DNA from: an uncultured Anaerolineales bacterium
GTDB lineage: Bacteria > Chloroflexota > Anaerolineae > Anaerolineales > E44-bin32
Reading direction: 5' to 3'
Assembly (NCBI GenBank): GCA_965603565.1
Contig: CBFDDM010000001.1
Coordinates: 7,299 to 71,298, forward strand
Length of the DNA: 64,000 nucleotides
The notes beneath the pieces are model-generated. The model searched no databases. It worked only from the letters and a program-made list of their open reading frames with translations, and was not told where the DNA came from. The position numbers and the translations under genes are program-made. Positions within the stretch are counted from its first letter, which is position 1, and each line of letters opens with the position of its first letter. Shown in pieces: positions 2,844-37,112 of the stretch.

Positions 2844-3761
2844 TCATTCTTGCGTGTTGACCAGACGCATGTACACATCTTCCAGCGACCGCTTCAGTTC
2901 ACCGACAAATTGCACCCTGGCGCCAGCCTCGACCAGTACCTCGATCAACTCCGGATTGTGCTTTTCGGGGTCATCCAATCCAACGACGAGTTTGTTGTCG
3001 ACGATGTCCACCGACTGCACGGCAGGGTGGTCCTGGAGTCGTTCGGCATAGCCTCCTTCGACCGCTGATAGGTGGAAGACAACCACCCGATCGTAGAGCT
3101 GCGAGCGCAGCGCCTGGGGCGCGTCCAGTGCGACGAGGCGGGTGTTAAAAACAGCAACACGGTCGCACAATCGATCCGCTTCGTCCAGATTATGCGTGCA
3201 CAGGAAAATCGTCCGGCCAGCCTGTTTGAGATCTTCGATGAACGCCCGCACAAGGCGAGCCATCTCCGGGTCGAGCCCGGAGGTGGGTTCATCCAGGAAC
3301 AAGATCTGAGGCTCGTGCAGCATCGCTCGGGCGATGGCCAGTTTCTGGCGCATACCTTTGGAGAAGGTCGCCGCCGGCTCCGCTCGCCGACCCCACAACC
3401 CGAGCATGCGCAGGTAGCGATCGACCTGCGCGTCCACGTCATCGACTTCGTACAGGTGAGCGAAGAAGCGCAGGTTATCCTCGGCGCTCAAACGATCGTA
3501 GAGACCGGGCGACTCGGTCAGGATGCCGACCCTGCGCCGGATTCCGTCGTCTTGCTCCCCCAGGACGTACCCGGCGACGGAAGCCCATCCGCTCGTAGGC
3601 TGGATCAGGGCACAGAGCATACGCAGCGTCGTCGTTTTACCCGCCCCGTTAGGCCCCAAGAATCCGAAAATCTCCCCCTCGCCGACCTCTAGCGAGAGAT
3701 CATCGACCGCAATTAAATCGCCAAACTGGCGCGTCAGGTGTTTCGCTTCAATCACAGCCAT
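2844..3761 (-). CDS. ABC transporter ATP-binding protein
   Basis: Walker A GPNGAGKTT, degenerate signature FSKGMRQK, Walker B ILFLDEPTSGLD, H-loop CTHN. Confidence 0.9.
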   Translation of the reverse strand: MAVIEAKHLTRQFGDLIAVDDLSLEVGEGEIFGFLGPNGAGKTTTLRMLCALIQPTSGWASVAGYVLGEQDDGIRRRVGILTESPGLYDRLSAEDNLRFFAHLYEVDDVDAQVDRYLRMLGLWGRRAEPAATFSKGMRQKLAIARAMLHEPQILFLDEPTSGLDPEMARLVRAFIEDLKQAGRTIFLCTHNLDEADRLCDRVAVFNTRLVALDAPQALRSQLYDRVVVFHLSAVEGGYAERLQDHPAVQSVDIVDNKLVVGLDDPEKHNPELIEVLVEAGARVQFVGELKRSLEDVYMRLVNTQE

Positions 3762-3797
3762 GCACTACTCCGCATCAGATGCAGTCCATTTTCGGGC

Positions 3798-4673
3798 TCA
3801 TACATAACGGCTTTGATCGATGCCCTCACCGATTCGGTCCTCACCGCTGTGATTCCGGAGACGAGATGATCCGTCGCGCAGTTTTGGATCGACGCTTCCA
3901 GGATCGCTAACCGCTAGAAGCCCGGTGGCACGAGACCAGTAGATGAACGCCAGCGCCATCAACGCCATGACGAAAACGGCGATTTCGGCCGCATAGACAT
4001 CGATACGCTGCATGATGTAAACAGCCACGGCATCCACAACAGTGTGCCATAGGACTGCGACAGCGAGCCAGCGGCGCTCCTGGCGCACGACCGAAGCGAC
4101 GACCATCAGAGCCGCGCTCATCTGCACCAACAGCGCAAAAACACGCTCAACCGCACCCAAAAGGGCAAGCGCGGGCGACATACTCCAGTAGGCTTGCAGC
4201 TGGTGCTCCGCGAGCACTGCCTGGTCCGCCCCCAGCACCTGCGCCAGATCGGCGTTGCGCAGCGCCACAGCCTGGATAAATGCGAAAAGGGCCAGGCCAC
4301 CAAAAATGATCGCCTCCACGCCACCGTGCCCGGCGCCATACAAGAGCCCGCTGCGCCAGGAGCGAGCCTCATACGCCCAGCGGCGCAGGAAGAGATAGCG
4401 TGCGAACTCCTCGAAAACCCCGGCGGAGAGCCCGACGAGCAGTGAACCGATCAACAGCCCTATAGCGCTGTCAGGGAAACCCAAATCCACGATCCAGGGG
4501 ACCAGCAGGAACTGGTTGAAGGGGATGTGCAGTACCTGCGAGGCGACGAAGGTGAGCGCCCCCCAGCCAAACAACCCCCACGACAGGTTGAAGCGCCGCG
4601 TCATCCAGATCCCAAGAATCAGCGGCAACCCGATCATGAGTGTGAAATTTATTACATGGGCGACCGTAAGCAT
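3798..4673 (-). CDS. YhfC-family (CPBP-like) intramembrane metalloprotease
   Basis: ORF 3798..4715. Likely start is MLTVAHV (4673). Polytopic. Motifs FEEFARYLFLR and GAGHGGVEAI resemble the YhfC/DUF2324 family. Confidence 0.6.
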   Translation of the reverse strand: MLTVAHVINFTLMIGLPLILGIWMTRRFNLSWGLFGWGALTFVASQVLHIPFNQFLLVPWIVDLGFPDSAIGLLIGSLLVGLSAGVFEEFARYLFLRRWAYEARSWRSGLLYGAGHGGVEAIIFGGLALFAFIQAVALRNADLAQVLGADQAVLAEHQLQAYWSMSPALALLGAVERVFALLVQMSAALMVVASVVRQERRWLAVAVLWHTVVDAVAVYIMQRIDVYAAEIAVFVMALMALAFIYWSRATGLLAVSDPGSVDPKLRDGSSRLRNHSGEDRIGEGIDQSRYV

Positions 4674-4773
4674 GATAACACCGTATCCTAAACCGGCGGG
4701 CACGCACCGCCACACGCGTGTAGGCTGCCCGCCGGTCTCAATTCACTCGTCCTGAACGGACCCTCAAGTTGGT

Positions 4774-4791
4774 ATGTTTCACGTGAAACAT
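4774..4791. promoter_or_regulatory. perfect 18-bp palindrome ATGTTTCACGTGAAACAT (TGTTT-N6-AAACA layout)
   Basis: Read directly. Lies in the gap between the DUF4177 stop (4801) and the YhfC-like start (4673). Confidence 0.45.
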
Positions 4792-4800
4792 ATTTACCCG

Positions 4801-5040
4801 CTAGCTAAACCCCCAATCACCCATCCAATTCTCGGTCGTGCTCTGTGTTTCCTTCTCGTCTCTCTGGCGGCTCTTCCGGAAGACCGCCAGGAATTTATTT
4901 GTGCTTTCACGCTGGATCACCTGCTGCAGCTCCCATCCATCCGCCGCAGCTCCATTAAGCAGTGCCTCCAGTTCACCGGCCTTGACCCCCCGCATGGCAC
5001 CGCCCAATTCCAGCACGCGGTAGCGTGTCCGGACGCTCAT
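4801..5040 (-). CDS. DUF4177-like small protein
   Basis: 79 aa. YRVLEL...LNGAAADGWELQQV pattern. Its start lies 1 nt after the SPFH gene stop. Confidence 0.55.
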   Translation of the reverse strand: MSVRTRYRVLELGGAMRGVKAGELEALLNGAAADGWELQQVIQRESTNKFLAVFRKSRQRDEKETQSTTENWMGDWGFS

Positions 5041-5041
5041 C

Positions 5042-6013
5042 CTAGGCCCCCTCTCCGCCGCGCAGGCTTTCGTTCGTGGCCGCCGTCGCCGCCAGCGAGG
5101 TCATGCCCGTCAGCCCGCCCAGGTTCATCGTGTCCACGGCGCTGGAGGGCACGATCACCAGGGCGCCTTTCTCCTTCAAGCCTTCAAAGAGCATGTTCAT
5201 CGCCCGCAGGTGCAGCGCCGTCGGGTTGTTTAGATAGGCCTGGGAAGCATCCGAGAACGATTGAGCGATCTGCTTCTCGGATTCGCCCAGGATCACGCGT
5301 GCCTGACGCTCGCGCTCCGCCTGCGCCTGGCGCGACATCGCATCCTCAAGTTCCTGCGGGATGACAATATCGCGGATCTCGACTGACTGCACCGTCACAC
5401 CCCAGGGTGTCGTGCGCTCATCGATGATCTCCTGCAGATCCCGGTCCATGCGTGCCCGCCCGACCAGGATGTCCGCCAGGTCCATCTGACCAATCACCTC
5501 TCGCAGCGCGGTTTGTGCCGCCCAGGCGATCGCCACACGGTAATCCTCGACCTCCAGCGCCGCCTTTTCTGCATCCCAGACCAGCCAGAAGAGTACCGCA
5601 TCGACATCCACCGGAACCGTGTCCTTGGTGAGCGTCTTCTCGGCGCTGAACGGTGTCACCATCACGCGGTGATCGATCCACACCGGGATGCGGTCCACAA
5701 CCGGAACGATCCAGAATATCCCTGGACCACGCAACCCGGTGAAACGGCCGAAGCGCAGAATGACCGCCTTCTCCCATTGGTCGGCGACTTTCAGAGCGAA
5801 GAGGATGTATAGCCCGATCAACTCGACCACCAGTGTGAACCCCAGTACCCATGTCCAACGGATTCCAAGAAGCAGCAATGTCAACGCGGCCAGCGCGGAG
5901 ATCGATACGATGATCAACCATACTGCGAATGCAATCCCTGGAACGCGGATGCGAGACTCTATCTGCTTCATACGATCCAAATCTAACCTTGTGAAATCTG
6001 CTGTTTTTGCCAT
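5042..6013 (-). CDS. SPFH/band 7 (stomatin-like) domain protein
   Basis: N-terminal TM helices, then EKAVILRFGRF...GPGIFWIVP...DVDAVLFW...TALREVIG...WGV.V.SVEIRDI and a coiled AERERQARV region. Confidence 0.85.
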   Translation of the reverse strand: MAKTADFTRLDLDRMKQIESRIRVPGIAFAVWLIIVSISALAALTLLLLGIRWTWVLGFTLVVELIGLYILFALKVADQWEKAVILRFGRFTGLRGPGIFWIVPVVDRIPVWIDHRVMVTPFSAEKTLTKDTVPVDVDAVLFWLVWDAEKAALEVEDYRVAIAWAAQTALREVIGQMDLADILVGRARMDRDLQEIIDERTTPWGVTVQSVEIRDIVIPQELEDAMSRQAQAERERQARVILGESEKQIAQSFSDASQAYLNNPTALHLRAMNMLFEGLKEKGALVIVPSSAVDTMNLGGLTGMTSLAATAATNESLRGGEGA

Positions 6014-24281: not shown

Positions 24282-26849
24282 TCAATCGGGCGTGGTCTGA
24301 AGCAGTGCTTCCACCAGCCGCACAGTGAGCGTCTTGACTTCGCCCCCTCCTGAACCCACCGGGCCTACACAGGCCGGGCATCCGTCGGCACAGCGGCACG
24401 TCCGCACCAGATCGAGGCTGCCCTTAAGGAGTTCATCGTGGAGTTCATAGAGGCGTTCTGAGAATCCCAGACCCTCCGGAATGCGATCGTATAACGTGAT
24501 CGTCGGGGCTTTGGTTTCCGAGGCGCGCACTTCCGTGATCACCCCCAGATCACGCGGGTCGCACATCAGGTAGAGCGGGGCGATGTTGGAGAACGCGTAC
24601 GCCAACCCGCCCAGCGCGCTGCGCTTGCCGCGCGCCGATTCGGCACGCTGGTGGCAGGAGGGGCAGAGCGTGATCAGGTTATCGAGCTCGTTCGCCATGA
24701 GGTCGTTGCGGTTCTCACCCGGGATGTAACCAAACGAGCGGAACGGCTTCAGATGGTGGACATCGTGGGCACGACCCGCTTTTTCCGGCGCGCCGCACTG
24801 CCGGCAGATAAACCCATCGCGTACTCTAGCCGCCTCGCGCGCCTGTGACCAGCTCGGCCCGTAGTCCTGGGGCGGCAGCAGCACCCCTTCTTGTTCCATC
24901 TGCTCGACGGTCTCCGGCGCGATCCATAACCAGTACGCCGAGGTCTCAAAATCGCGCGGGGGCAGCTCGATCGACCCGTAACCGAGCGTCTCGTGCGTGT
25001 AGCGTTTGACCTTGCGGTAGGAGGTAGCCTGCGCTGTGATCTGCACCCATCCGTGCGCTCGCCGCGCCAGTTGGTTTTCATCGGCATCGTAAGCCTCGAG
25101 CACATCCATGTCGACCGTGTCGGAGGCATCCGTGTAGTAGTCGATCTCTGCCGGCTTGACCAGCGCGATGCCATTATCCCAATCCAACTCCTGGACGATG
25201 TAGGTGCTGCCCTCGTGAATGTAAATGGCGCCCTCATGAATCAACAATGGTGCGGTGGCGCGATCGACCTCACCGATCACCACCGGCCGCCCTTCGCCGG
25301 TGTCCTGGATCACGATCGTGTCGTCCGTGCTTGCTCGCAGCGAGACAGATTCGGCCGGATAGGTATCTGCGACCCAATGATAGTTCCCGTTTGAACGATG
25401 CAGCTCGTCTTGATCGGCGAGGTGCTCTAGCAGCTCGTCGATCTCATCGAGTGTCCCGAACCCTTCTCCAATTTCAAAGGGCAGTTCGAATGCTGCACAG
25501 CGCACATGCCGCAGCAGGATCGCCAGGTTGTCCGGATTAATCAGGCCCATCTCGGGTGAGCGCTCGAAAAGATATGCGGGGTGAGTGGCGATGAACTGAT
25601 CAAGCGGTGCGGCGGAAGCAACCAAAACCGCCGCAGAGATCTCGGCCCGCCGCCCGGCGCGTCCGGCCTGCTGCCACAGGCTGGCGATTGTTCCAGGGTA
25701 GCCGGCCACGACCGCCGCTCCCAGCCTGCCGATATCCACACCCAACTCAAGCGCGTTGGTCGCCACGACGCCGCACACCTCACCGCTTCGCAAGCCACGC
25801 TCGATCTCGCGCCGTTCGAGCGGAAGGTACCCGCCACGGTAGCCGCGGATCATGTTCGGATCGCCGCCTGCTTGCTCGTAAGCGTCGCGTACATATCCAA
25901 GCAGGACTTCGGTCGTGAGACGGGCGCGGGCGAACACGGCAGTCTGCACCTCACCGCGCAGGAACAAATCGGCCACGCGCGTCGATTCGAGCGTATAGGC
26001 TCGGCGGATCCCCAGCGACGGCTCGATAACCGGTGGGTTGTAGATGATCACGTGCTTCTCAGCCCGCGGCGCGCCGTCGAGGTCCTGCGGGATGAGGTGG
26101 ACCGGCGCTTCGATCAGCCGCTCGGCCAGTTCTTTCGGATTGGCAATCGTCGCCGAGGTGAGCACGAACTGCGGCGCAGCCCCATAGAACTGGGCGATAC
26201 GGCGCACGCGGCGCAGCACATTAGCGACGTTCGAACCGAAAATGCCGCGATAGACGTGCAGTTCGTCGATCACGATCCAGCGCAGGTTCTCAAAGAAGTT
26301 CGCCCAGCGCGGGTGGTGGGGCAGGATACCGGTGTGCAGCATATCGGGATTGCTGATCAGCAGCCGCACATCCTCGCGAATCGCCCGGCGCCTGGCCGGC
26401 GGCGTGTCACCGTCGTAGGTCTCCACGCGCACCTGATCTTGCGCTCCCAATGTGTCCAGGAACTTAGCCAGTGCGCTGGCTTGATCCTGCGCGAGCGCTT
26501 TCGTCGGAAACAGGTAGAGCGCGCGTGCCTCTGAGTTATCCAGAAGTGTCTGCATCACTGGGACGTTGTAGCAGAGCGTCTTGCCCGAAGCTGTGCCGGT
26601 CACCACGACCACGTTGTCGCCAGCAAGCGCAGCCTCGATCGCTGCGCCTTGATGGCTGTAGAGCGGCGCTTGCCCAGATTCGTGCAGCGCGCTGATGATG
26701 CGTGCGTGCATCGCCTCCGGGAAAGGTACATGCCGCGCCGGGTGAGCCGGCAGCCGCTCCCAGGCAGAGACATTGGACATGAACTGCGGGTCGAGACGCA
26801 GTCGCTCGAGTACATTCTCAACGGTCATTGTGGGCGGATTATATTGCAA
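24282..26849 (-). CDS. SF2 DEAD/DEAH-box helicase of the DUF1998 (MrfA/YprA/SftH-like) type, with an embedded HNH nuclease motif
   Basis: Motif I TGTASGKT, motif II VIDELH, motif III TSAT, motif VI QQAGRAGRR. C-terminal CRCADGCPAC. HNH-like CRQCG..HDVHHLKP..N..DNLITLCPSCH at aa ~680-735. Confidence 0.85.
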   Translation of the reverse strand: MQYNPPTMTVENVLERLRLDPQFMSNVSAWERLPAHPARHVPFPEAMHARIISALHESGQAPLYSHQGAAIEAALAGDNVVVVTGTASGKTLCYNVPVMQTLLDNSEARALYLFPTKALAQDQASALAKFLDTLGAQDQVRVETYDGDTPPARRRAIREDVRLLISNPDMLHTGILPHHPRWANFFENLRWIVIDELHVYRGIFGSNVANVLRRVRRIAQFYGAAPQFVLTSATIANPKELAERLIEAPVHLIPQDLDGAPRAEKHVIIYNPPVIEPSLGIRRAYTLESTRVADLFLRGEVQTAVFARARLTTEVLLGYVRDAYEQAGGDPNMIRGYRGGYLPLERREIERGLRSGEVCGVVATNALELGVDIGRLGAAVVAGYPGTIASLWQQAGRAGRRAEISAAVLVASAAPLDQFIATHPAYLFERSPEMGLINPDNLAILLRHVRCAAFELPFEIGEGFGTLDEIDELLEHLADQDELHRSNGNYHWVADTYPAESVSLRASTDDTIVIQDTGEGRPVVIGEVDRATAPLLIHEGAIYIHEGSTYIVQELDWDNGIALVKPAEIDYYTDASDTVDMDVLEAYDADENQLARRAHGWVQITAQATSYRKVKRYTHETLGYGSIELPPRDFETSAYWLWIAPETVEQMEQEGVLLPPQDYGPSWSQAREAARVRDGFICRQCGAPEKAGRAHDVHHLKPFRSFGYIPGENRNDLMANELDNLITLCPSCHQRAESARGKRSALGGLAYAFSNIAPLYLMCDPRDLGVITEVRASETKAPTITLYDRIPEGLGFSERLYELHDELLKGSLDLVRTCRCADGCPACVGPVGSGGGEVKTLTVRLVEALLQTTPD

Positions 26850-26889: not shown

Positions 26890-27573
26890 TCATTCGAGGG
26901 GGTTGACGTAGACCTGGTGTGTCACGCGCGGGCCGAGCACAACCGCTTCGGGCTTGCCTTCGACCTTCAGCGTAAGATTTTCGTCGAACGGAGAGTAATC
27001 CTGGACATGTAGTTCGGCGTCTGGCTGTAGACCCAACTCCATGAGGTGGCGCAGCAGCGCGGGGTCGCTATCGCGCACACGCTGCACAACGGCACGCTGC
27101 CCGCCGCGCAGTTCACTCAGACGCACGCTTGTCGAGGGTGGGATCTCGAGATCGCGGGTGGGGATCGGGTCGCCATGCGGGTCGTGGGTGGGATCACCCA
27201 GCACATGAGCGATACGCTCCTCCATCTTCTCGGAGATCACGTGCTCGAGCCTGTCGGCCTCCTCGTGCACTTCGTCCCATGGGAAGCCCAGGACCTGGTG
27301 CAGGAACATCTCGATCAGACGGTGGTGGCGGATGGTCTGCAGCGCCACATTACGGCCGTGCTCGGTGAGCACCACGCCGCGGTGTTTGCGGTACTCCAAC
27401 AATGGCGGGTCGGTCTCGGCCAGCTTCTGCACCATGCCGGTCACCGAAGCCGGCGTCACGCCAAGCCTCTCGGCCAGGCGGTTAGTCGTGGCGCGGTCAC
27501 CCTTGGAGGTCAATTCAAAGATGACCTTCAAATAGTTCTCTATCGATTCGGTCCACGCTTTTTCCATGAGCAA
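26890..27573 (-). CDS. DtxR/MntR family metal-dependent transcriptional regulator with C-terminal FeoA/SH3-like domain
   Basis: IENYLKVIFEL...TNRLAERLGVTPASVTGMVQKL...HHRLIEMFL...EADRLEHV...HDPHGDPIP. Confidence 0.85.
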   Translation of the reverse strand: MLMEKAWTESIENYLKVIFELTSKGDRATTNRLAERLGVTPASVTGMVQKLAETDPPLLEYRKHRGVVLTEHGRNVALQTIRHHRLIEMFLHQVLGFPWDEVHEEADRLEHVISEKMEERIAHVLGDPTHDPHGDPIPTRDLEIPPSTSVRLSELRGGQRAVVQRVRDSDPALLRHLMELGLQPDAELHVQDYSPFDENLTLKVEGKPEAVVLGPRVTHQVYVNPLE

Positions 27574-27607: not shown

Positions 27608-29044
27608 TCAAAGTGCAGCGAGCGTCTGCCAGATCTGCGCGACCAAGAACGTGACCACAAAACCTATCACGAGCGGCAGCAGCGCAGAGACCACCGTCCA
27701 TTTTAGATCACCGGTCTCTTTATAAATCGTGTAGACCGTCGTGCTGCAGGGATTGTGAATCAAGCTGAACAGCATCAGGTTCACACCGGTCAGCAGTGTC
27801 CAGCCTCCTGCGGTTAGGATATCCAGCGTCTGGATGGTCGATTCGAGCTCGAACATCACACCCGCCCCTTCCCCGATGCCCGTCAAGCCGGCGGTCAGCA
27901 CGGTCAGCATCATCACCGTTGGGATCACGATTTCGTTCGCCGGAATGGCGATGATATAGGCCATCAGGATGACGCCGTTCAGGCCAAGCAGCAATCCAAA
28001 GGGATTCAGGAAGGAGACCAAGTGTTCGGCGAGCGTCTGTCCGCCTAGCGAGAGATTGGCGCTCAACCAGATTACCGCGCCCGCTGGAAGTGCAAAAACC
28101 ACGGCGCGCCAGAGCACGAAAATCGTGCGGTCGATGATCGATGTGTAGATTGTCTGCCAGATCCGTGGTGGGCGGTAAGGGGGCAGTTCGAGACTGAATG
28201 TCGACAGCTCGCCCCTGAGCCATGTTCGTGAAAGAAACCATGAAACCACGAAGGTCAGCAGGACCCCCAGAAGAGCGATGCCAACGACTGCCATAGCGGA
28301 GAAAAGTCCGGCGAGATGCGCGGGCACAAGAGTGCCGATGAAGATCGTCGCGATCAGGATCTGCGTTGGCCAGCGGCCATTGCACAACGCAAAGTTGTTC
28401 GTGATGATGGCGATCATGCGCTCGCGCGGCGAATCGATGATCCGGGTGGCTATCACACCGGCGGCATTGCACCCGAATCCCATCATCATGCTCAGAGCCT
28501 GTTTGCCGTGTGCGCCAGCCTTTTTGAAGATGTTGTCCAGGTTGAACGCCAGGCGCGGTAGAAAACCGAAATCTTCAAGCAGTGTGAAGAGCGGGAAGAA
28601 AATCGCCATCGGCGGCAGCATCACGCTTACCACCCAGGCCGTAGCGAGATACATGCCGTCGATCAAGACGCCGCTCAACCACCACGGAAACCCGATTGCG
28701 CTTGCGCCCTCTTTCAGAAAAGGATAGACGCTCCCGATCAGCACGCGTGAGATCATCTGGGAAGGCACATTCGCGCCCGAAATCGTGAGCCAGAAGATCA
28801 GCGTGAAGAGCAAGATCATGATTGGAAAACCCCAGATCCTGCTCGTAACCACACGGTCTATGGCTCGATCCAGATCGAAACGTCGCTCTTCGCCGGGCCG
28901 CGTAACTGCTCGGTCGGCGATGCGTGCTGCGTCGGTGTAAATCGCTTCGACGAGCCGTTCGTGGATATCGCCTCCGATCTCCCAGCGGATCACGCGCGCC
29001 CTATCGATAAGCTTTTTCGAAGGGCCCTTTGCCGACACGGTCAT
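27608..29044 (-). CDS. ferrous iron transporter FeoB, membrane (nucleoside-recognition/gate) part encoded as a separate gene
   Basis: 478 aa, polytopic. Begins where full-length FeoB leaves its GDI domain ([12 protein letters not shown]...). The ATGA overlaps the upstream G-domain gene. Confidence 0.85.
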
Positions 29045-29889
29045 ACCGCCGCCTCCATCGTTTTGCCCGCTCCTGGATCTTCGGCGATCACTTCCATTTC
29101 GACGATCGTACCTAATTCACCATTTTCAATGGCGGCGATGATGCGTTCATCTCCGTCCATCAATCGCAACGCGACCCAGCGCCTGTTGGGCAAGTAGGGG
29201 TAGACCCTCTCAAGCTCGCGCACGATCTCTGCAACCGCGGTCTCTAGCTCCGGTGAAAGGGCTTTGATGCGGTGAGGTTTTGTGCGGGTTTCCCCGGTCG
29301 CAATCTCGTGGATCGCAAGGATCAATTCATCGAGCCCTTCACCATAACGTGCGCTGGTCGGCACGACGGGGACACCTAGGTCCCGAGCCAATCTGCGGTG
29401 GTCAACTTCCAGACCGTGACGTTTGGCCTCGTCCATGAGGTTGAGGCAGACGACGACACGATCCGTGATCTCCAGAATCTGCAGCACCAGATTCAAGTTG
29501 CGCTCGAGGCGGTTGGCGTCCGCCATCACGACGGTCACATCCGGTCGGCCGAAGAGGATGAAATCACGCGCAACCTCCTCGTCCAGCGAGGTCGAGAGGA
29601 GTGAATAGGTACCGGGCAAATCGACGATTTTGTAGTTGTAGCCCCCGTACTCAAAGCCGCCTTCCGCCCGGGTGACCGTCTTGCCCGGCCAGTTGCCGGT
29701 GTGCTGGCGCAGCCCGGTGAGGGCGTTGAACACGGTGCTCTTGCCAGTGTTGGGATTCCCAGCCAGCGCAATGACGAAATCCCATTCCTGCATATCCACG
29801 CCCAGCTTCTTGAGATTGGCGGCGTTGTGCACCGGACAAGTTTCGCAGGGCGCGTCTTTTCTTGCCTGCTTGATATCTACTTCACTCAT
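29041..29889 (-). CDS. FeoB N-terminal GTPase (G domain plus helical domain) encoded as a separate gene
   Basis: G1 [10 protein letters not shown]2 GKTV, G3 DLPG, G4 NLMD. About 40-aa N-terminal extension with CETCPVH. No TM segments. Confidence 0.85.
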
Positions 29890-30913
29890 GTGCCTGTATA
29901 CCCTGCTTTCGTATGATGATTTGACCCGCCTGTTCGGCCCGCAGCGCGATCAAAGCCCCGCGTATGCGGTAGGCGACCGGGTCGCCGCTCGCGCTCGTGT
30001 ACTCTGCACACACCATCGTGCCAGGCAGCAACCCAAGATCCATCATCCTGCGGCGTTCTGCACCCCGCAACGATGGCGCCAGGGCAAGTACTTCGGCTTG
30101 CTCTCCAATGGAAAGGCTGTTCATTTTCTCGCCCTTCAACTGCGCTTGATCGTCACCGATCGGGATGACATGGATGTTCGCTGCGACCAGCGGTGCTAAA
30201 ACGTGTTCATCGCCCCCTGCCCAGAATCGGATCCGCTGTGGATCCCGGCTCAATAGCAGAAGCGGCATGCCTGGGTGCAGCCCTTCGGCGACGATCTGGG
30301 CGAAGACCGTCTCGGGCTCATCTTCCAGGTGAACGATCTGGAGGGCAGAGTCGTTTTCCTCAACCGCCGCGAGTGTAATCCCTGCCACCTCTCCCATATC
30401 CCCGTCTGCAGTCGGAATCGGGTCGCCATGCGGGTCATAGACGGGATGACTCAGCCTTGCAGATAATTGTTCAAGCTCCTCGTGGGTCAGCATGTGTTCT
30501 AACCGGTCGGCTTGAACGTGCCATTCGGTCTCGGCGAATCCGGTTTCGTCGGCGAGGTAGCGCTCCCACAGTCGGTGGGCGCGCAGTAAGTGCAGGGCAA
30601 GATCGCGACCGGATGGGGTCAGCACAGGCAGCTCAGCCTCGAAATCCACCAACCCCCGTTCGTCTAGCTCAGAGATCAGTGTGTGCGCATCGTCAACGCT
30701 GATATGCAGCGCTCCCGCCAGGCTGTGCAGGGAAGTCCTGCGACCGGAAATTTCGCAATCGAAGATATGCTTGATCGCGTCTTCCCTGCGAGTTTTGTTG
30801 GTCACCTTTCGGGCATAGCGCCACTGTGCCAAGAGACCGCGCTCGGGAAAGAAGACCCAAAGCACGGCCGCGATCGCTGCCGAACCAATAAGAAGTGTGA
30901 TTAGATTTTCCAT
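29882..30913 (-). CDS. membrane-anchored DtxR-family regulator fused to two FeoA domains
   Basis: ORF 29882..30949 (TTG). I prefer ATG 30913 ([22 protein letters not shown] = TM helix). Then w[23 protein letters not shown], and two FeoA/SH3-like segments. Confidence 0.75.
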
Positions 30914-30997: not shown

Positions 30998-31026
30998 CAT
31001 TATATAGTTAGTTTAGGCTAATTTCA
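30998..31026 (-). promoter_or_regulatory. promoter TTGAAA-17-TATAAT with a DtxR/IdeR-type iron box in the spacer
   Basis: Minus strand reads TTGAAA TTAGCCTAAACTAACTA TATAAT. TTAGCCTAAACTAA (31007..31020) matches the right 14 nt of the TTAGGTTAGCCTAACCTAA consensus with 1 mismatch. Confidence 0.6.
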
Positions 31027-31048
31027 AGGGCTTTCCGGATCTTCGTGT

Positions 31049-31801
31049 TCAGACGACGATCACGTTCTGCAGCAGCATCATCGCCAGGAAACCCGCCATC
31101 GCCGCGATGGCGCTGAACTGGCGCTGATCATGGTTGGCGCGGCTCTCGGGGATCATCTCGCTGAGCACCAGGAAGAACATCGCCCCGGCAGCCAGGCCAA
31201 ACGCGAAGGGCAGGATCTGCCTGAACGCCACGACGGCCAGATAGGCCGGGATTGCAGCGATCGGCTGTGGCAGGCTGGAGAAGATCGACCAGCCTACGCA
31301 TTTCCATCCGCTGACGCCATCGGCGCGCAGCGGCAGCGAGACGGCCACGCCCTCGGGAATATTGTGGATCGAGATGGCGATCGCCATGATCAACCCAAGG
31401 TTGGTCTCGCCCGACCCGTACGCCACGCCCACCGCCAAACCCTCCGGGATGCTGTGGAAGAACATCGTCGCCAGGATCAGCGTCACTCGCTTGGCGCTGG
31501 CGTCGTTGATGCCTGAAAGCGTGAAATCGTGGTGGTCGATGTAGCGCGAAGCCACACCGAAGATGAGCGTGCCCGCCAGCACGCCGAGGGCGACCTGCAG
31601 GATGCCGCCGTCATCTACGCCGGGGATGATCAGGTTGAAAACGGAAGCCGAGAGCATCATGCCGCCGGCAAACGCCCAGCTCAACCCTGCTATTGATTCC
31701 GGGAATCGGCGCACAAAGACAAACGGCAGACCACCCAGCCCGGTGGCCAACATCGTGATCGTAGCGGCTACAACAGCCATAAGGAGTCCGGAATCCATCA
31801 A
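31049..31801 (-). CDS. ZIP family metal transporter (ZupT-like)
   Basis: HSIPEGLAVG and HNIPEGVAV motifs, 8 TM helices. ATGA overlap with the upstream TrmB gene. Confidence 0.85.
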   Translation of the reverse strand: MMDSGLLMAVVAATITMLATGLGGLPFVFVRRFPESIAGLSWAFAGGMMLSASVFNLIIPGVDDGGILQVALGVLAGTLIFGVASRYIDHHDFTLSGINDASAKRVTLILATMFFHSIPEGLAVGVAYGSGETNLGLIMAIAISIHNIPEGVAVSLPLRADGVSGWKCVGWSIFSSLPQPIAAIPAYLAVVAFRQILPFAFGLAAGAMFFLVLSEMIPESRANHDQRQFSAIAAMAGFLAMMLLQNVIVV

Positions 31802-32604
31802 GATGCTTTGCTCCTCTCATCCGTGGTCGATAAGCTTTCAAACACGGCCCGGTCTTCAGGCGAAAGCCTGGAAAGAAGTTCATCCCCGAGCTGCGCAGCG
31901 ATGCGTTGGGTGAACATCTCCATCCAGATGAACTGGCGTGTGATCGCCACCATGTTGCGGTTGTTCGTTACCGTCGCCAAGACTGCCACGTCCATATCCG
32001 AGATCAGTGACTGTGATTCGTCGGTCACAACCACCAGTGTGTGGTCCAACTCCTGGAGTTCGCTCTCAAGCGGCGGGTGGTGGGCCACTTCGCCACACTC
32101 CAACATTCCCGCGCCGGTCAGCAGTGTGCGCAGCTGCAGATCGCGATCACAGGCAGCCTGCACAACCGCCGAGAGTGCTTCCAGTGCCTGGTCGGGCAGA
32201 ACCAGCATGACTTCGTCCTGGGCGCCGGCGATCATCTCTCGGGCATAAGCAAGCACCGCTTCGCGACCGTTGATCGTCCACAGCCGCTCTTCACGCTGGT
32301 CTGCGTACGCTGCGGTTAGTCCTTTTGATAGTACGCGCATGTGTGTTTCGTGCCCCGCCTTCAAACTGCGCAGCAGCACCTCCGGAGGCAGCGGCCGGTA
32401 GAGCGTTGACTTCTCACCCTCGCTGGCCAACACCGCCCCGCGACCGGACAAACGGCTCAGCGTCTCGTAAACCATCGAGCGCGGCACCCCAGACGCCTTT
32501 GAAAGTTGGTAGCCTGAAGCGGGGTGTTCGCTCAGAAGCGCCAAATAGACCTTGGCTTCATACTCGGTAAAGCCGACCTGGTTGAGAGTATCGATCAGGT
32601 TCAT
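31798..32604 (-). CDS. TrmB family transcriptional regulator
   Basis: LNQVGFTEYEAKVYLALLSEHPASGYQLSKASGVPRSMVYETLSRL, plus a C-terminal TrmB-type effector domain. Confidence 0.8.
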   Translation of the reverse strand: MNLIDTLNQVGFTEYEAKVYLALLSEHPASGYQLSKASGVPRSMVYETLSRLSGRGAVLASEGEKSTLYRPLPPEVLLRSLKAGHETHMRVLSKGLTAAYADQREERLWTINGREAVLAYAREMIAGAQDEVMLVLPDQALEALSAVVQAACDRDLQLRTLLTGAGMLECGEVAHHPPLESELQELDHTLVVVTDESQSLISDMDVAVLATVTNNRNMVAITRQFIWMEMFTQRIAAQLGDELLSRLSPEDRAVFESLSTTDERSKAS

Positions 32605-32616
32605 GCCATCTCTCGT

Positions 32617-32669
32617 ATAGTTGTTCTATATATAACGACTATTATGGCTGTGGGAGTTCAACATGTCAA
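32617..32669 (-). promoter_or_regulatory. promoter TTGACA-17-CATAAT followed by 26-bp inverted repeat (candidate TrmB operator)
   Basis: Minus strand: TTGACA (32669..32664), CATAAT (32646..32641), then ATAGTCGTT-ATATATAG-AACAACTAT (9-bp arms, 1 mismatch) at 32642..32617. Confidence 0.55.
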
Positions 32670-33508: not shown

Positions 33509-33754
33509 TCAGGTTTTAAGGAGGTAGCACTGTGCGCTGCCGTCCGAGGGCGAGCAAGCCGTGCGCAGTGGGCAAAGGTCACATTTGTCGTTTTCAAGCG
33601 CGCTCAATCTGCCCATCTGCACGAGCGTATCGAGCATACCAGCAACGACCACGGGGTCCCTGCCCAACGCTTGCGCGACCTGGCGTGCAGTTAACGCTCC
33701 GTCCTGGTCCCTGAATTGGTCAAGGATCTCCGCCAGCACCCCGGACTTAGCCAT
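33509..33754 (-). CDS. feoC: FeoC-like winged-helix protein
   Basis: 81 aa, directly after feoB. LAEILDQFRDQDGALTARQVAQALGRDPVVVAGMLDTLVQMGRL, plus a Cys-rich tail CDLCPLRTAC. Confidence 0.65.
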   Translation of the reverse strand: MAKSGVLAEILDQFRDQDGALTARQVAQALGRDPVVVAGMLDTLVQMGRLSALENDKCDLCPLRTACSPSDGSAQCYLLKT

Positions 33755-33757
33755 CGC

Positions 33758-35968
33758 TCACCCTAAAAGGCTCCCGATCTGGAAGACGACTGTCGCAGCC
33801 ACCCATGCAATCCCGGATTGATAGAGGGCGGAAAATAGCGCCCAGCGGCCGCCGAATTCCGATCGGATCACGCTGAGAGTGGCGATGCACGGTGTGTACA
33901 AGAGCACATAGACCAGGAACGCCAGACCTGCTGCCGGCGTAAACACGCGTGTGAGCACGCTGCTCAGTGCGGTCTCGCGAGCTTGAGCGTCAGCAGGTTC
34001 GGGGAAGATGGTGATACCTGGCGTCAGCGTCTCCAACACCTCCCGACCTGCGTCGACATTGGCGCTCACGAATCCAGCGCCGATGCCCGTCAGCTGCTGG
34101 ATAAATTGAGGCTCAGGATCAAGCGTTTCCAGCGGCGAGCCGAGGTAAATCTCGGACATTGTGGAGACGACGACCTCCTTGGCCACCAACCCGGACATCA
34201 AAGAGGCCGAAGCTTCCCATGTGCCGAAGCCCGCCGGCTCAAACACCGGCGCGACCGCTGCGCTGGCGCGACCAAATACACTGTCCTCAATCGATGTCGC
34301 ACCGAGCGGGAACTGGAGCAAAATCCAAACGATGATCGATGCCAGGAGGATGACCGTCCCGGCGCCCTCGATGAAGTCACGCGTGCGCACCGACACATGT
34401 GCCCACAGACCGCTCAGCGTAGGCAGACGATAACGCGGCAGCTCCATTACAAACTCAGTCCTTCCGCCCGTCTTCAAAACGGTGCGCGAGAAGACCCACC
34501 CGACCAGGATTGCCGCGGCGACACCCAGCGCATATAGCACCCAGATTACCTGGTCGGCACGCCTTCCAAAAAGCGCAATGCCGAAAAGCACGTAAACAGG
34601 CAACCGCGCCGAACAGGACATCAATGGAACCATCAGCGCGGTCAGCAGGCGATCGCGCCTGTTCTCAAGCGTACGGGTGGCGTAGATCGCCGGCACTGCG
34701 CAGCCAAAGCCCAGGATCAAAGGCACAAAACTCCTGCCGTTCAATCCCAGAAACGACAGGAATCGGTTCATCACAAACGCCGCTCGAGAAAGATAGCCGC
34801 TGTCCTCCAGCAGGGCGATGAAAACAAACAGCACGATCAATCCAGGCATGAATACCAACACGCCTCCAACGCCGGCGATGACGCCCTCTACGATTAACGC
34901 TTTGAGCCACGCCGGCGCTGCCAGTGCACTCAAAGCAGCCGCGCTCCATGCGGTCAGCGGGCCGCTCACCACCGCGTCGATCCAATCCAAATAGGGTGCT
35001 GATACGTTCACCACCAGGCGGAAAATAAAGTACATGATCGCCAGGAAGATCGGAATGCCCAGGACAGGATGCGTCACGATCCGGTCCAGCTGGTCCGAAA
35101 ACGCGCTTTCGGCTCCGCGATCGAACGCCAGGATCTGATCGGAAAGCCGGCCTACCTCTGCAAAGCGCACGTCCGCGACGTGGAATTCAATCCCTTCGGG
35201 AAGCGCTGCTTGCAAGCGCTCTTTGCTGTCGGTTATATTTCGAACAATCCCGTCAGGCGCCTTGCTGTCCATTTTCTCTATCAATTGTCGCCCGTTGGCC
35301 AGCATTTCGAGCGCCAGCCACCGGGAGCGAAATTTGCTCGGCAGCTCCTGCGCTTGCTCCAGCTGTGGTCGCAAGCGGGCGATTTCCCGCTCGACTTCCA
35401 CGCCGTACTTGAGCTCCAGTCCCTCTGTCCGGCTGTACCCATTTGCGCGCGCAATTATGATCTGATCCGTAATAGCTTGCTTGAGCGTCTGAATTCCTTC
35501 GCCCTTGTTTGCAGCCACGCGTATAACCGGCACTCCACCGAGCTGCTCTTCAAGGTTCTGGACGTCGATAAGCTGGCCCTGTTTATCGGCCAGGTCGCTC
35601 ATGTTCAGAGCCAGAACGGCGGGTATGCCCGTTTCGAGAATCTGGATCGCCAGGTACAGGTGGCGCTCCAGGTTGGTGGCATCCAGCGCGATGACGACCA
35701 GGTCCGGCGATTCTTCCAGCAGGTAGGATCGGGCGACGTTCTCCTCATCCGAATAGGCTGCCAGGCTGTATGCTCCTGGAAGGTCAATCACATCAAACGA
35801 GTGCGCATCGTGCTCGTAACAGCCCTGTTCGCACGCCACCGTCTTGCCGGGCCAATTGCCGACATGCTGGCGTGAGCCGGTCAGTTGATTGAAGATCGTA
35901 GTCTTGCCGGAGTTCGGGTTGCCGGCAATGGCGACTTTATAATGCTTACCAGCGGTCACGCTGATCAC
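33758..35968 (-). CDS. feoB: ferrous iron transporter FeoB (full length)
   Basis: 736 aa. G1 GNPNSGKTT, DLPG, NMSD, followed by the polytopic membrane domain. Confidence 0.92.
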   Translation of the reverse strand: MISVTAGKHYKVAIAGNPNSGKTTIFNQLTGSRQHVGNWPGKTVACEQGCYEHDAHSFDVIDLPGAYSLAAYSDEENVARSYLLEESPDLVVIALDATNLERHLYLAIQILETGIPAVLALNMSDLADKQGQLIDVQNLEEQLGGVPVIRVAANKGEGIQTLKQAITDQIIIARANGYSRTEGLELKYGVEVEREIARLRPQLEQAQELPSKFRSRWLALEMLANGRQLIEKMDSKAPDGIVRNITDSKERLQAALPEGIEFHVADVRFAEVGRLSDQILAFDRGAESAFSDQLDRIVTHPVLGIPIFLAIMYFIFRLVVNVSAPYLDWIDAVVSGPLTAWSAAALSALAAPAWLKALIVEGVIAGVGGVLVFMPGLIVLFVFIALLEDSGYLSRAAFVMNRFLSFLGLNGRSFVPLILGFGCAVPAIYATRTLENRRDRLLTALMVPLMSCSARLPVYVLFGIALFGRRADQVIWVLYALGVAAAILVGWVFSRTVLKTGGRTEFVMELPRYRLPTLSGLWAHVSVRTRDFIEGAGTVILLASIIVWILLQFPLGATSIEDSVFGRASAAVAPVFEPAGFGTWEASASLMSGLVAKEVVVSTMSEIYLGSPLETLDPEPQFIQQLTGIGAGFVSANVDAGREVLETLTPGITIFPEPADAQARETALSSVLTRVFTPAAGLAFLVYVLLYTPCIATLSVIRSEFGGRWALFSALYQSGIAWVAATVVFQIGSLLG

Positions 35969-36338
35969 CTTCCGATTCGCTCAAACGCTCTCCTGGACCG
36001 CGCCAATGCTTCCAGCCGCGCCGGCCACCTCTACCGCCAGCCCTGCGATGGCCGCCTGCCCTACGCCAGGCCCGACGCCCCTGGTTCTGTATCTGCATTC
36101 CCTCTTCAATTTGCTCGACCTCGATCTTCTGGGCCGTTTCGCGGTCGATCGCCAGCTGCGAGCCACGCACGCGCAGCAGTATCGGCTGACCCCTGGATGC
36201 CTGAAGCACCTTGATGGTCGTCCCTGGTGTGAGGCCCATCTCGGTGAGGCGTAAGCCACAGCGACGGCAGCGCACAAACCCGAGCATGCGCACTTCAGCC
36301 CCTGCTGGAACTTGATCGAGCCTCATCGCTTTGCTCAT
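35946..36338 (-). CDS. feoA: FeoA with Arg/Gly/Trp-rich C-terminal extension
   Basis: RLDQVPAGAEVRMLGF...LTEMGLTPGTTIKVLQAS.GQPILLRVRGSQLAIDRETAQKIEV is a FeoA SH3-like core. About 55 extra residues follow. Overlaps the feoB start by 23 nt. Confidence 0.75.
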   Translation of the reverse strand: MSKAMRLDQVPAGAEVRMLGFVRCRRCGLRLTEMGLTPGTTIKVLQASRGQPILLRVRGSQLAIDRETAQKIEVEQIEEGMQIQNQGRRAWRRAGGHRRAGGRGGRRGWKHWRGPGERLSESEGDQRDRW

Positions 36339-37057
36339 CCAACCTCCTTGCCTGCCGGCCGGATGTAAAGGTTCGCCGCGATCTCATTTGAGATCTGGAC
36401 CTTCTGTCCGTTTACGGTTGCCTGGGTGGTTATTTCGTCCTTCGCGAAGGAATCAATTTCGCAGACCTTACCGGGGAGCAAACCCAGCGAAGCAGCGCTT
36501 TCAAGCAATTTTGTGCTCTCTGGAAATACGCTTACTACCTCGATCCGGGAGGGTACATCGAGTTCAATCAGGCGCATGCCTTGCGCTAGGCTTGACTCAG
36601 CCTCCGCGCTGGGGATGGGGTTGCCGTGTGGGCAGGTCTCCGGCTCACCAAGGAAGAGCGCCAACCGTTCGCTGATCTCGCGGCTGGTGGCGTGTTCCAA
36701 CCGGCAGGCGGCATCATGCGCGTGCTGCCACTCTACCCCCAGGTGATCGACGAGGAAACGCTCCCATAAGCGGTGCCGGCGCAGCACTGTGTTGGCCCGC
36801 TTAAGCCCTGCTCCGGTCAGCGACACGCCCTTATAGGGCAGGTGCTCGACAAAGCCCTGATCCTGCAGGCGGCGCACCTTCTCGCTTGCCGACACCGTGG
36901 AAATGCCCAGGCGTTGGGCAAGCCCAGTTACCGGCACGACCTCCCGGTCCGCAGTGAGCTCGACCAACGTCTTCAGATACATTTCGGTGTTTTCGCCGTA
37001 AACGCTGTCTACTGCCACTAAATCTTCTCGATCGCTCCTGTTAGGTTTACCTAACAT
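36335..37057 (-). CDS. DtxR family metal-dependent regulator with C-terminal FeoA-like domain
   Basis: ORF 36335..37111. The ATG at 37111 lies inside a CRP-type palindrome and upstream of the iron boxes, so I prefer MLGKPNRS (37057) or a later GTG. TEMYLKTLVEL, HRLWERFL, RLEH, CPHGNPIP. Confidence 0.7.
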   Translation of the reverse strand: MLGKPNRSDREDLVAVDSVYGENTEMYLKTLVELTADREVVPVTGLAQRLGISTVSASEKVRRLQDQGFVEHLPYKGVSLTGAGLKRANTVLRRHRLWERFLVDHLGVEWQHAHDAACRLEHATSREISERLALFLGEPETCPHGNPIPSAEAESSLAQGMRLIELDVPSRIEVVSVFPESTKLLESAASLGLLPGKVCEIDSFAKDEITTQATVNGQKVQISNEIAANLYIRPAGKEVG

Positions 37058-37070
37058 AGGTTGACCTAAT
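37040..37070 (-). promoter_or_regulatory. tandem DtxR/IdeR-like iron boxes
   Basis: GTTAGGT-TT-ACCTAAC (37040..37055) followed immediately by ATAGGT-TG-ACCTAAT (37056..37070). Overlaps a candidate -10 (TAATAT, 37074..37069) and the first ATG of the DtxR gene. Confidence 0.6.
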
Positions 37071-37096
37071 ATTAAGTTGCGGTGGAGTGATGCGCA

Positions 37097-37112
37097 TGTG
37101 ACATGCGTCACA
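37097..37112. promoter_or_regulatory. perfect CRP-type site TGTGA-CATGCG-TCACA
   Basis: Read directly. Part of the 20-bp palindrome CATGTGAC-ATGC-GTCACATG (37095..37114). Its centre is ~30 nt upstream of the candidate -10. Confidence 0.5.

Follow-up and report, generated by a model that had tools for sequence, protein, structure and literature searches.

The 64,000-nucleotide (nt) stretch analyzed here (the window) belongs to contig CBFDDM010000001.1 of an uncultured Anaerolineales bacterium. On its minus strand, an open reading frame (ORF) at 29882..30913, starting with ATG, encodes a 343-amino-acid (aa) protein and is the first gene of an operon that also encodes a FeoB-type transporter. 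The protein has an N-terminal hydrophobic helix, a DtxR-like body and two C-terminal SH3/FeoA domains, and is called here the anchored protein. For a distinct, usually split FeoB importer, this protein may well be the metal-sensing FeoA subunit or scaffold, anchored to the membrane, and not the repressor of the operon. The original prediction for this gene had left two alternatives, a membrane-tethered regulator in the manner of ToxR/CadC and an accessory protein of the FeoA type that no longer binds DNA. We favor the accessory protein, because the module has no other FeoA, the gene is coupled to feoB, a soluble DtxR paralog with an intact recognition helix is encoded alongside in most anchored loci, and the DNA-reading head is degenerate. 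This alternative needed one amendment, metal sensing being apparently retained; the ToxR/CadC-like regulator fared worse, its topology being different and a periplasmic sensor missing here.

The features from which the gene had been predicted, namely the hydrophobic helix, the DtxR metal region and two SH3/FeoA modules, the second a good FeoA, were all present. The quoted motifs were located at aa 4-22 (hydrophobic helix), 113-120 (HRLWERYL), 137-140 (RLEH), 160-167 (DPHGDPIP) and 293-325 (LGLLPGTMV...). Pfam recognized two domains: Fe_dep_repr_C (PF02742), covering aa 99-168 with E 3e-23, and FeoA, covering aa 264-335 with E 1e-14 and 54.7 bits (gathering cut-off 23). The NCBIfam MntR model aligned to aa 43-253, so the first SH3 module is the ordinary ancillary domain of long DtxR proteins and the second is an extra FeoA. 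The nearest solved structures by sequence (phmmer) were the Mn-dependent repressors 5zr4/5zr6 and Deinococcus radiodurans DR2539 (8pvt), followed by IdeR and DtxR. The C-terminal 75 residues matched the stand-alone FeoA structures 2k4y, 2k5f, 2k5l and 7r7b.

An AlphaFold2 model, built from a 77-sequence alignment, had a predicted local distance difference test score (pLDDT) of 92.3 and a predicted template modeling score (pTM) of 0.80. It consisted of a helix at aa 2-21, a kink at P23-E-R-G26, a single long helix (27-55) running into DtxR helix 1, a winged helix-turn-helix (wHTH), a helical metal domain and two SH3 barrels. Foldseek against the PDB matched the core to DtxR-family repressors only, the best being Mn-MntR 5zr6, SloR, ScaR and IdeR, with E values down to 1e-16 and target-normalized TM-scores (template modeling) of 0.7-0.9. 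The anchored protein thus has the three-domain fold of DtxR/MntR, with wHTH, metal/dimerisation and SH3 ancillary domains. FeoA is typically a small (~8 kDa) free cytoplasmic protein, and here it is the C-terminal quarter of an anchored 343-aa protein. A FeoC identity of the wHTH was rejected, as Pfam gave no PF09012 match in the anchored protein.

The hydrophobic segment appears to be a real transmembrane anchor. Its Kyte-Doolittle hydropathy, as a 19-residue mean, peaked at 2.48 at aa 4-22, compared with a maximum of 0.50 in the soluble paralog of the same operon. Across 120 homologues the mean hydropathy peak was 2.53, and the flanks of the helix differed in net charge, with -0.7 on the N-terminal side and +4.3 over the 20 aa that follow. 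Because the positive charges follow the helix, the anchor is predicted to be N-out/C-in, with the DtxR body in the cytoplasm; the hydropathy and charge distribution thus bear out the single N-terminal membrane helix that had been predicted. The protein has no periplasmic domain; only 1-3 residues would lie outside the cell. After the helix, a boundary motif (F/W-P-x-R-G) is conserved in the homologues.

Two ways in which the anchor could have been an illusion had been raised with the prediction, and neither held. A true start downstream of the helix was rejected, since relatives 79-80% identical keep ATG, frame and hydrophobicity alike, with hydrophobic residues replacing hydrophobic ones, and 239 homologues share the same hydrophobic beginning. 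The next in-frame ATG is Met141, far downstream, and starts at the in-frame GTG/TTG codons 17, 28 and 37 are argued against by the conservation of the helix-coding part alone. A cleaved signal peptide was rejected as well. The positive charges come after the helix and not before it, a pattern of anchors and not of secretion signals, and the remainder of the protein is a cytoplasmic metal sensor.

Metal sensing by the anchored protein appears to be fully retained. Among the 239 anchored homologues, the primary-site ligands (D45, D/E136, E139 and H140) were ~100% conserved, as were those of the binuclear ancillary site (H113, E117, H132, D160, H162 and D164, plus D198 of the SH3 domain). The choices are of the Mn type: the helix-1 position is Asp, and that of DtxR Cys102 is Asp/Glu. 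Anchored and soluble paralogs carry identical ligand motifs, for example ADRLEH and DPHGDPIP. This ligand set, taken with the kinship to the PgMntR/FeoB2 system described below, suggests Mn2+, or Mn2+ and Fe2+, as the metal.

DNA binding by the anchored protein is doubtful. No match to the DtxR DNA-binding domain PF01325 was found in it at E <= 0.01, whereas the other two DtxR proteins of the window matched at ~1e-14. An alignment of the wHTH with the DNA-contacting residues of DtxR had been suggested with the prediction, and we transferred published contacts to the anchored protein through HMMER alignments. All mapped contacts were replaced. At DtxR R27, A28, R29, T40, S42, R47, R50 and R60 (PMC7762939) it has L, H, S, D, H, E, E and L/P, and at DR2539 Y12, R46 and K47 (bioRxiv 2024.02.12.579695) it has A, S and E. 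The mapped IdeR contacts were likewise lost. In the clade of the anchored protein (119 sequences), the position of DtxR Thr40 was Asp/Glu in 63%.

For a paired comparison we used 36 loci encoding both a twin-FeoA protein and a soluble DtxR paralog, the divergence times being equal for both. In the metal/dimerisation domain, the mean pairwise identity was 0.56 for the twin-FeoA proteins and 0.55 for the soluble ones. The corresponding values were 0.22 vs 0.45 in the recognition helix and 0.29 vs 0.45 in the wing. The net charge of helix plus wing was -0.89 for the twin-FeoA proteins vs +1.78 for the soluble paralogs (paired Wilcoxon p = 4e-5); in this window, counted on the paired alignment, it was -7 for the anchored protein vs +1 for the soluble one. 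For the whole wHTH, the net charge ranged from -1 to +3 in known DNA binders and averaged ~0 in the wider anchored family. In every phylum, the soluble paralogs had a (T/S/A)PASV(T/S)xMxxKL helix and a basic wing.

The placement of the anchor points in the same direction. In DtxR, the N-terminal end of helix 1 has to unwind, as it would otherwise clash with DNA (PMC7762939), and the modeled helix 27-55 lengthens helix 1 at its N-terminus. Because the anchor joins the DNA-abutting end of helix 1 via this modeled rigid helix, the former DNA-binding face should point at the membrane.

The operon has a sigma-70-type promoter, with 11 of 12 consensus matches, and a TTAG-N6-CTAA box, TTAGCCTAAACTAA on the sense strand. 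An iron box had been predicted at 31007..31020; the box is there, its position corrected to 31008..31021, and it lies inside the promoter spacer, which would be the classic arrangement for repression. Two matches to TTAG-N6-CTAA were found in the window, 0.11 being expected. The layout of promoter and box is kept in the related loci L001 and L002, and the same box class is found upstream of the homologous gene in L001, L002, L008, L010 and L013. Across the window and these five loci, the recognition helices of the anchored proteins were completely different, while those of the soluble ones were almost identical (PASVTGM). In L006, L009, L014 and L015, the region upstream of the twin-FeoA gene had another operator class, TTTGA-N4-TCAAA, in place of TTAG-N6-CTAA. 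The soluble paralogs of L006 and L009 had a different recognition helix, TAGTATSMAKSL or TPGTATTMMKHL. Since the TTTGA-N4-TCAAA loci carry other soluble recognition helices, operator class and soluble paralog seem to co-vary.

We collected 75 loci with a twin-FeoA DtxR gene. Directly downstream of it was a FeoB G-domain gene in 59 of the 61 loci with enough downstream sequence, and a separate feoA was absent from every module. The FeoBs of the modules were 58-72% identical across phyla, and ~30-40% identical to the other FeoB of the window. Typically, one gene encodes a soluble G-protein of ~260-290 aa and another a permease of ~465-490 aa, the two genes overlapping by 4 nt; such a split FeoB was found in 35 of the 45 classifiable related loci. 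In the window, the stop codon of the sensor gene (29882-29884) overlaps the start of the FeoB G-domain gene (ATG at 29889) by 8 nt, an overlap correctly foreseen, and the sensor gene is probably translationally coupled to the split FeoB.

The split FeoB and the soluble paralog went together with the anchor. The ratio of split to fused FeoB was 33:3 for anchored and 2:7 for unanchored proteins (Fisher p = 8e-5), and a soluble DtxR paralog was adjacent in 21/26 anchored and 1/5 unanchored loci (Fisher p = 0.017), both tests being uncorrected for phylogeny and based on few unanchored loci. Among the 21 anchored loci, the soluble paralog was mostly found immediately upstream on the same strand; in three it followed the permease, as in this window. 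The direction of both associations would fit PgMntR, which is unanchored and its own repressor.

The FeoBs of the modules also had a hallmark of their own. An N-terminal extension of ~35 aa carried a CxxC motif, ~22 residues before the G1 motif, in 59 of 63 module FeoBs and in neither of two canonical ones. Two cysteines alone are not enough for a full metal site. On helix 1 of the twin-FeoA sensors, Cys53 and His49 are conserved, and it is conceivable that these and the CxxC share an intermolecular metal site. In one locus, L077, an open frame at 3004..5349 contained a twin-FeoA match (3298-4044, query residues 79-334) and continued for ~1.3 kb; it could be a natural fusion with a downstream protein or an assembly artefact.

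The architecture of transmembrane helix, DtxR core and two FeoA domains is widespread, not rare, and occurs in several phyla. A word-indexed search gave 7556 DtxR-family matches, of which the best 120 were all ~340 aa long, covered end to end and starting with the same helix. These 120 came mainly from metagenome bins of Anaerolineae/Chloroflexi, and were annotated only as "DtxR family Mn-dependent transcriptional regulator". An exhaustive search among representatives of 50%-identity clusters gave 371 proteins at E <= 1e-30, and the anchor helix was present in 122 of the best 150 representatives. Anchored members were also found in bins assigned to Bacteroidota, Planctomycetaceae, Bryobacteraceae, Methylococcaceae and Chloroflexia. 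The search for this architecture had been proposed together with a caveat, that the family might prove to be widespread and already characterized. Widespread it is, the architecture being common among the homologues; in the open-access literature, we found no paper describing a membrane-anchored DtxR or a split FeoB. A paper comparing Feo systems (PMC8749426) mentions FeoA proteins that carry additional domains, and neither DtxR nor a split FeoB.

The nearest studied relative is PgMntR (PG1044) of Porphyromonas gingivalis, a soluble protein of 310 aa with two FeoA domains at its C-terminus; it is encoded with the Mn importer FB2 and binds Mn2+, Fe2+ and, in vitro, its own promoter (PMC4805248). 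A DtxR protein with twin FeoA domains was thus already known, and the premise of the original prediction, that DtxR proteins have one SH3-like domain, was outdated. In both proteins the wHTH is followed by the metal/dimerisation domain, the ancillary SH3 and then the second FeoA, and both head operons with a FeoB-type transporter. The metal ligands of PgMntR (D19, H85, E89, H104, C108, E111, H112, D132, H134 and H166/D169/E170; PMC4805248) match D45, H113, E117, H132, D136, E139, H140, D160, H162 and H195/E197/D198 here, with an offset reported as a constant 28. Unlike the soluble PgMntR, the anchored protein has a transmembrane helix in ~26 extra N-terminal residues and is, in effect, PgMntR plus an anchor. 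It further differs by Asp/Glu where the primary site of PgMntR has Cys, by its acidic, poorly conserved recognition helix, and by having a soluble DtxR paralog and a split FeoB alongside. We conclude that it is a variant of the PgMntR-type twin-FeoA DtxR family, abundant and undescribed, in a previously unremarked four-gene module.

Other known systems resemble the anchored protein in part. With the canonical DtxR/IdeR/MntR proteins (DtxR, IdeR, DR2539, ScaR, SloR and Mycobacterium tuberculosis MntR 5zr6) it shares the fold, the SH3 ancillary domain and metal sites as in DR2539; it differs from them by the anchor, the second FeoA, the missing Pfam match to the DNA-binding domain and the replaced DNA contacts. 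ToxR/CadC are likewise wHTH proteins held in the membrane by a single helix. Their cytoplasmic OmpR-type wHTH is N-terminal, and the helix and a periplasmic sensor follow in this order, whereas here the helix comes first and a DtxR-type wHTH after it, sensing would be cytoplasmic and DNA binding is in doubt. FeoA shows nucleotide-dependent binding to the FeoB G-domain and stabilizes its guanosine triphosphate (GTP)-bound form, and natural FeoA-FeoB fusions exist, such as NFeoAB of Bacteroides fragilis (PMC8980893). As in these, a genuine FeoA is encoded right before feoB, is the sole FeoA of the system and is physically tied to the vicinity of the transporter. In contrast to them, the tie to the membrane is through a separate sensor, and the FeoA is joined to a metal-binding DtxR core, unseen in described FeoA proteins.

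In the mechanism that we propose, a DtxR/MntR-type sensor, presumably dimeric, would be held at the inner face of the membrane by one N-out/C-in helix. Its C-terminal FeoA would supply the FeoA function to FeoB, because it is the only FeoA in the module. The anchor would keep this FeoA, and through it the detached soluble G-protein, beside the permease. Metal binding to the DtxR core would rearrange or lock the SH3 domains, as in soluble DtxR proteins, and this would alter whether FeoA engages the G-protein, giving a fast, post-translational feedback on uptake. The soluble DtxR/MntR paralog would bind the TTAG-N6-CTAA box and repress the promoter. A more specific version, which we put forward tentatively, is that the DtxR fold has become a membrane-resident allosteric gate: a dimer under the split FeoB would read cytoplasmic Mn2+/Fe2+ and switch the detached G-protein on or off via FeoA, and the acidic former DNA-binding face may take part.

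Built-in cytoplasmic sensors of metal or ligand provide transport feedback (trans-inhibition) in MgtE, MetNI and ModBC. The proposed logic would be the same, with cytoplasmic substrate on an importer-attached sensor stopping uptake without transcription. The likeness is an analogy of mechanism, there being no kinship in sequence or fold.

Several observations weigh against an accessory role. The nearest studied relative, the soluble PgMntR, binds DNA. The wHTH fold is fully kept at high confidence, and its helices 1 and 2 are well conserved. At the Thr40 position, 52% of the cluster representatives of the wider anchored family have Arg/Lys, similar to the unanchored relatives (43%); because the wider family is so often basic here, the strong acidification is specific to this Anaerolineae clade. 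The association tests ignore shared ancestry and the unanchored sample is small, and 5 of the 26 anchored loci lack an adjacent soluble paralog.

The same observations lend some weight to a membrane-tethered repressor, in which the metal-loaded anchored dimer would bind TTAG-N6-CTAA at the membrane while FeoA reports the state of the transporter, possibly with one protein being both FeoA and repressor. Such a repressor would draw on complete metal sites in addition to the complete wHTH, on the operator in the promoter spacer of its own operon, on the binding of its own promoter by PgMntR, on basic recognition-helix residues in about half of the distant anchored members, and on the five loci without a soluble paralog next to them. 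We nevertheless consider it unlikely. Here every mapped DNA contact is lost and helix and wing are strongly negative, these two elements show half the conservation of their counterparts in the soluble paralog of the same loci, and the operator class follows the helix of that paralog and not of the anchored protein. The DNA-binding face would, according to the model, face the membrane, and a second regulator with the same ligand set in one operon would be redundant.

A membrane decoy or anti-repressor, forming heterodimers with the soluble paralog via the dimerisation domain and holding it at the membrane, so that repression is tuned to transporter abundance, seems quite improbable. In 21 of 26 loci both paralogs are present, and they share an equally conserved metal/dimerisation domain with identical ligand motifs. 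Over the core, however, they are only ~30-36% identical, nothing points to heterodimers, and the strictly conserved FeoA, the absence of another FeoA and the link to split FeoB would be left unexplained. That the anchor keeps a PgMntR-like repressor latent until cleavage near the P-E-R-G boundary is hardly credible: the boundary motif F/W-P-x-R-G is conserved and the protein without its first ~26 residues equals PgMntR in length and ligand spacing, but the module has no protease gene, the DNA-reading surface is acidic with its contact residues lost, and a soluble repressor is already present.

Table 1 Features of the anchored protein, its operon and the promoter region (positions in the window).
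Feature	Position	Strand	Basis or remark
Gene of the membrane-anchored DtxR-like protein with two SH3/FeoA domains, 343 aa	29882..30913	-	ORF, Pfam/NCBIfam, homologues, AlphaFold2, Foldseek
Predicted transmembrane helix, aa 2-22, N-out/C-in	30848..30910	-	Hydropathy, charge, model, conservation
Basic linker helix, aa 27-43, modeled as continuous with DtxR helix 1; after the conserved P23-E-R-G26 kink	30785..30835	-	
wHTH domain, aa 44-100; recognition helix and wing acidic and poorly conserved; primary-site ligand D45	30614..30784	-	No PF01325 match
Metal-binding/dimerisation domain, aa 101-170; ligands H113, E117, H132, D136, E139, H140, D160, H162, D164	30404..30613	-	
First SH3-like (ancillary) domain, aa 180-252, with invariant H195-x-E-D198-E-P motif	30158..30376	-	
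Second SH3 domain, a genuine FeoA, aa 262-336	29906..30130	-	Resembles FeoA structures 2k4y, 2k5f, 7r7b
FeoB G-protein subunit, 282 aa, soluble; start overlaps the sensor stop by 8 nt	29041..29889	-	
CxxC motif C15-E-T-C18 of the FeoB G-protein, within its N-terminal extension	29836..29847	-	Clade hallmark
FeoB permease subunit, 478 aa, Gate and FeoB_C; 4-nt overlap with the G-protein gene	27608..29044	-	
Soluble canonical DtxR/MntR paralog, 227 aa, PF01325, PF02742 and FeoA; probable operon repressor	26890..27573	-	
Sigma-70-type promoter of the operon, TTGAAA-17-TATAAT	30999..31027	-	11/12 consensus matches
Candidate DtxR/MntR-type operator TTAG-N6-CTAA, imperfect palindrome, in the promoter spacer	31008..31021	.	

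The surroundings of the operon appear to form a metal-homeostasis island. Directly upstream and on the same strand (31049..32604, minus) are genes for a TrmB-like regulator and a ZIP-family metal transporter, which have a near-consensus promoter to themselves (TTGACA-17-CATAAT at 32669..32641); in L002, too, this pair precedes the homologous gene. A second, canonical Feo operon (33509..37111, minus) encodes an IdeR-type regulator, FeoA, a fused FeoB of 736 aa and a FeoC-like protein (33509..33754). Its regulator has Met/Cys ligands of the Fe type (TEMYLK, AACRLEH), and upstream of the operon is the second TTAG-N6-CTAA box of the window (37041..37054, TTAGGTTTACCTAA). The listed 258-aa ORF of this regulator probably starts too early, because the box lies within it. 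The two Feo systems of the window probably differ in the metals or conditions that they serve. In the second operon, FeoA (35946..36338, minus, 130 aa) has a C-terminal tail of ~50 aa, rich in Arg, Gly and Trp (GRRAWRRAGGHRRAGGRGGRRGWKHWRG...), which overlaps the start of feoB; it could be a true basic tail, or else an artefact caused by the frame overlap. Just downstream of the operon of the anchored protein (24282..26849, minus) we found an 855-aa DEAD-box helicase with a MrfA Zn-binding domain and an inserted HNH nuclease domain, which looks unrelated to metal uptake.

This family bears on two questions of bacterial iron and manganese uptake, namely what FeoA contributes to FeoB and how Feo activity ends when enough metal is present. 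The label that all its members now carry, Mn-dependent transcriptional regulator of the DtxR family, is probably misleading for regulon predictions from metagenomes. The family is a natural experiment, in which FeoA, joined to a metal sensor that is well understood, is tied to the membrane just where FeoB is split into a soluble GTPase and a permease. Because FeoB is split and FeoA sits on a sensor protein of its own, the components can be purified separately and recombined. If the proposed model is true, this would be the first DtxR-family protein to control a transporter directly instead of via a promoter, a role never described for the fold, and Feo would have a post-translational feedback loop. 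Should the tentative allosteric gate also prove true, the long-debated role of FeoA would be that of a metal-controlled clutch between G-protein and permease.

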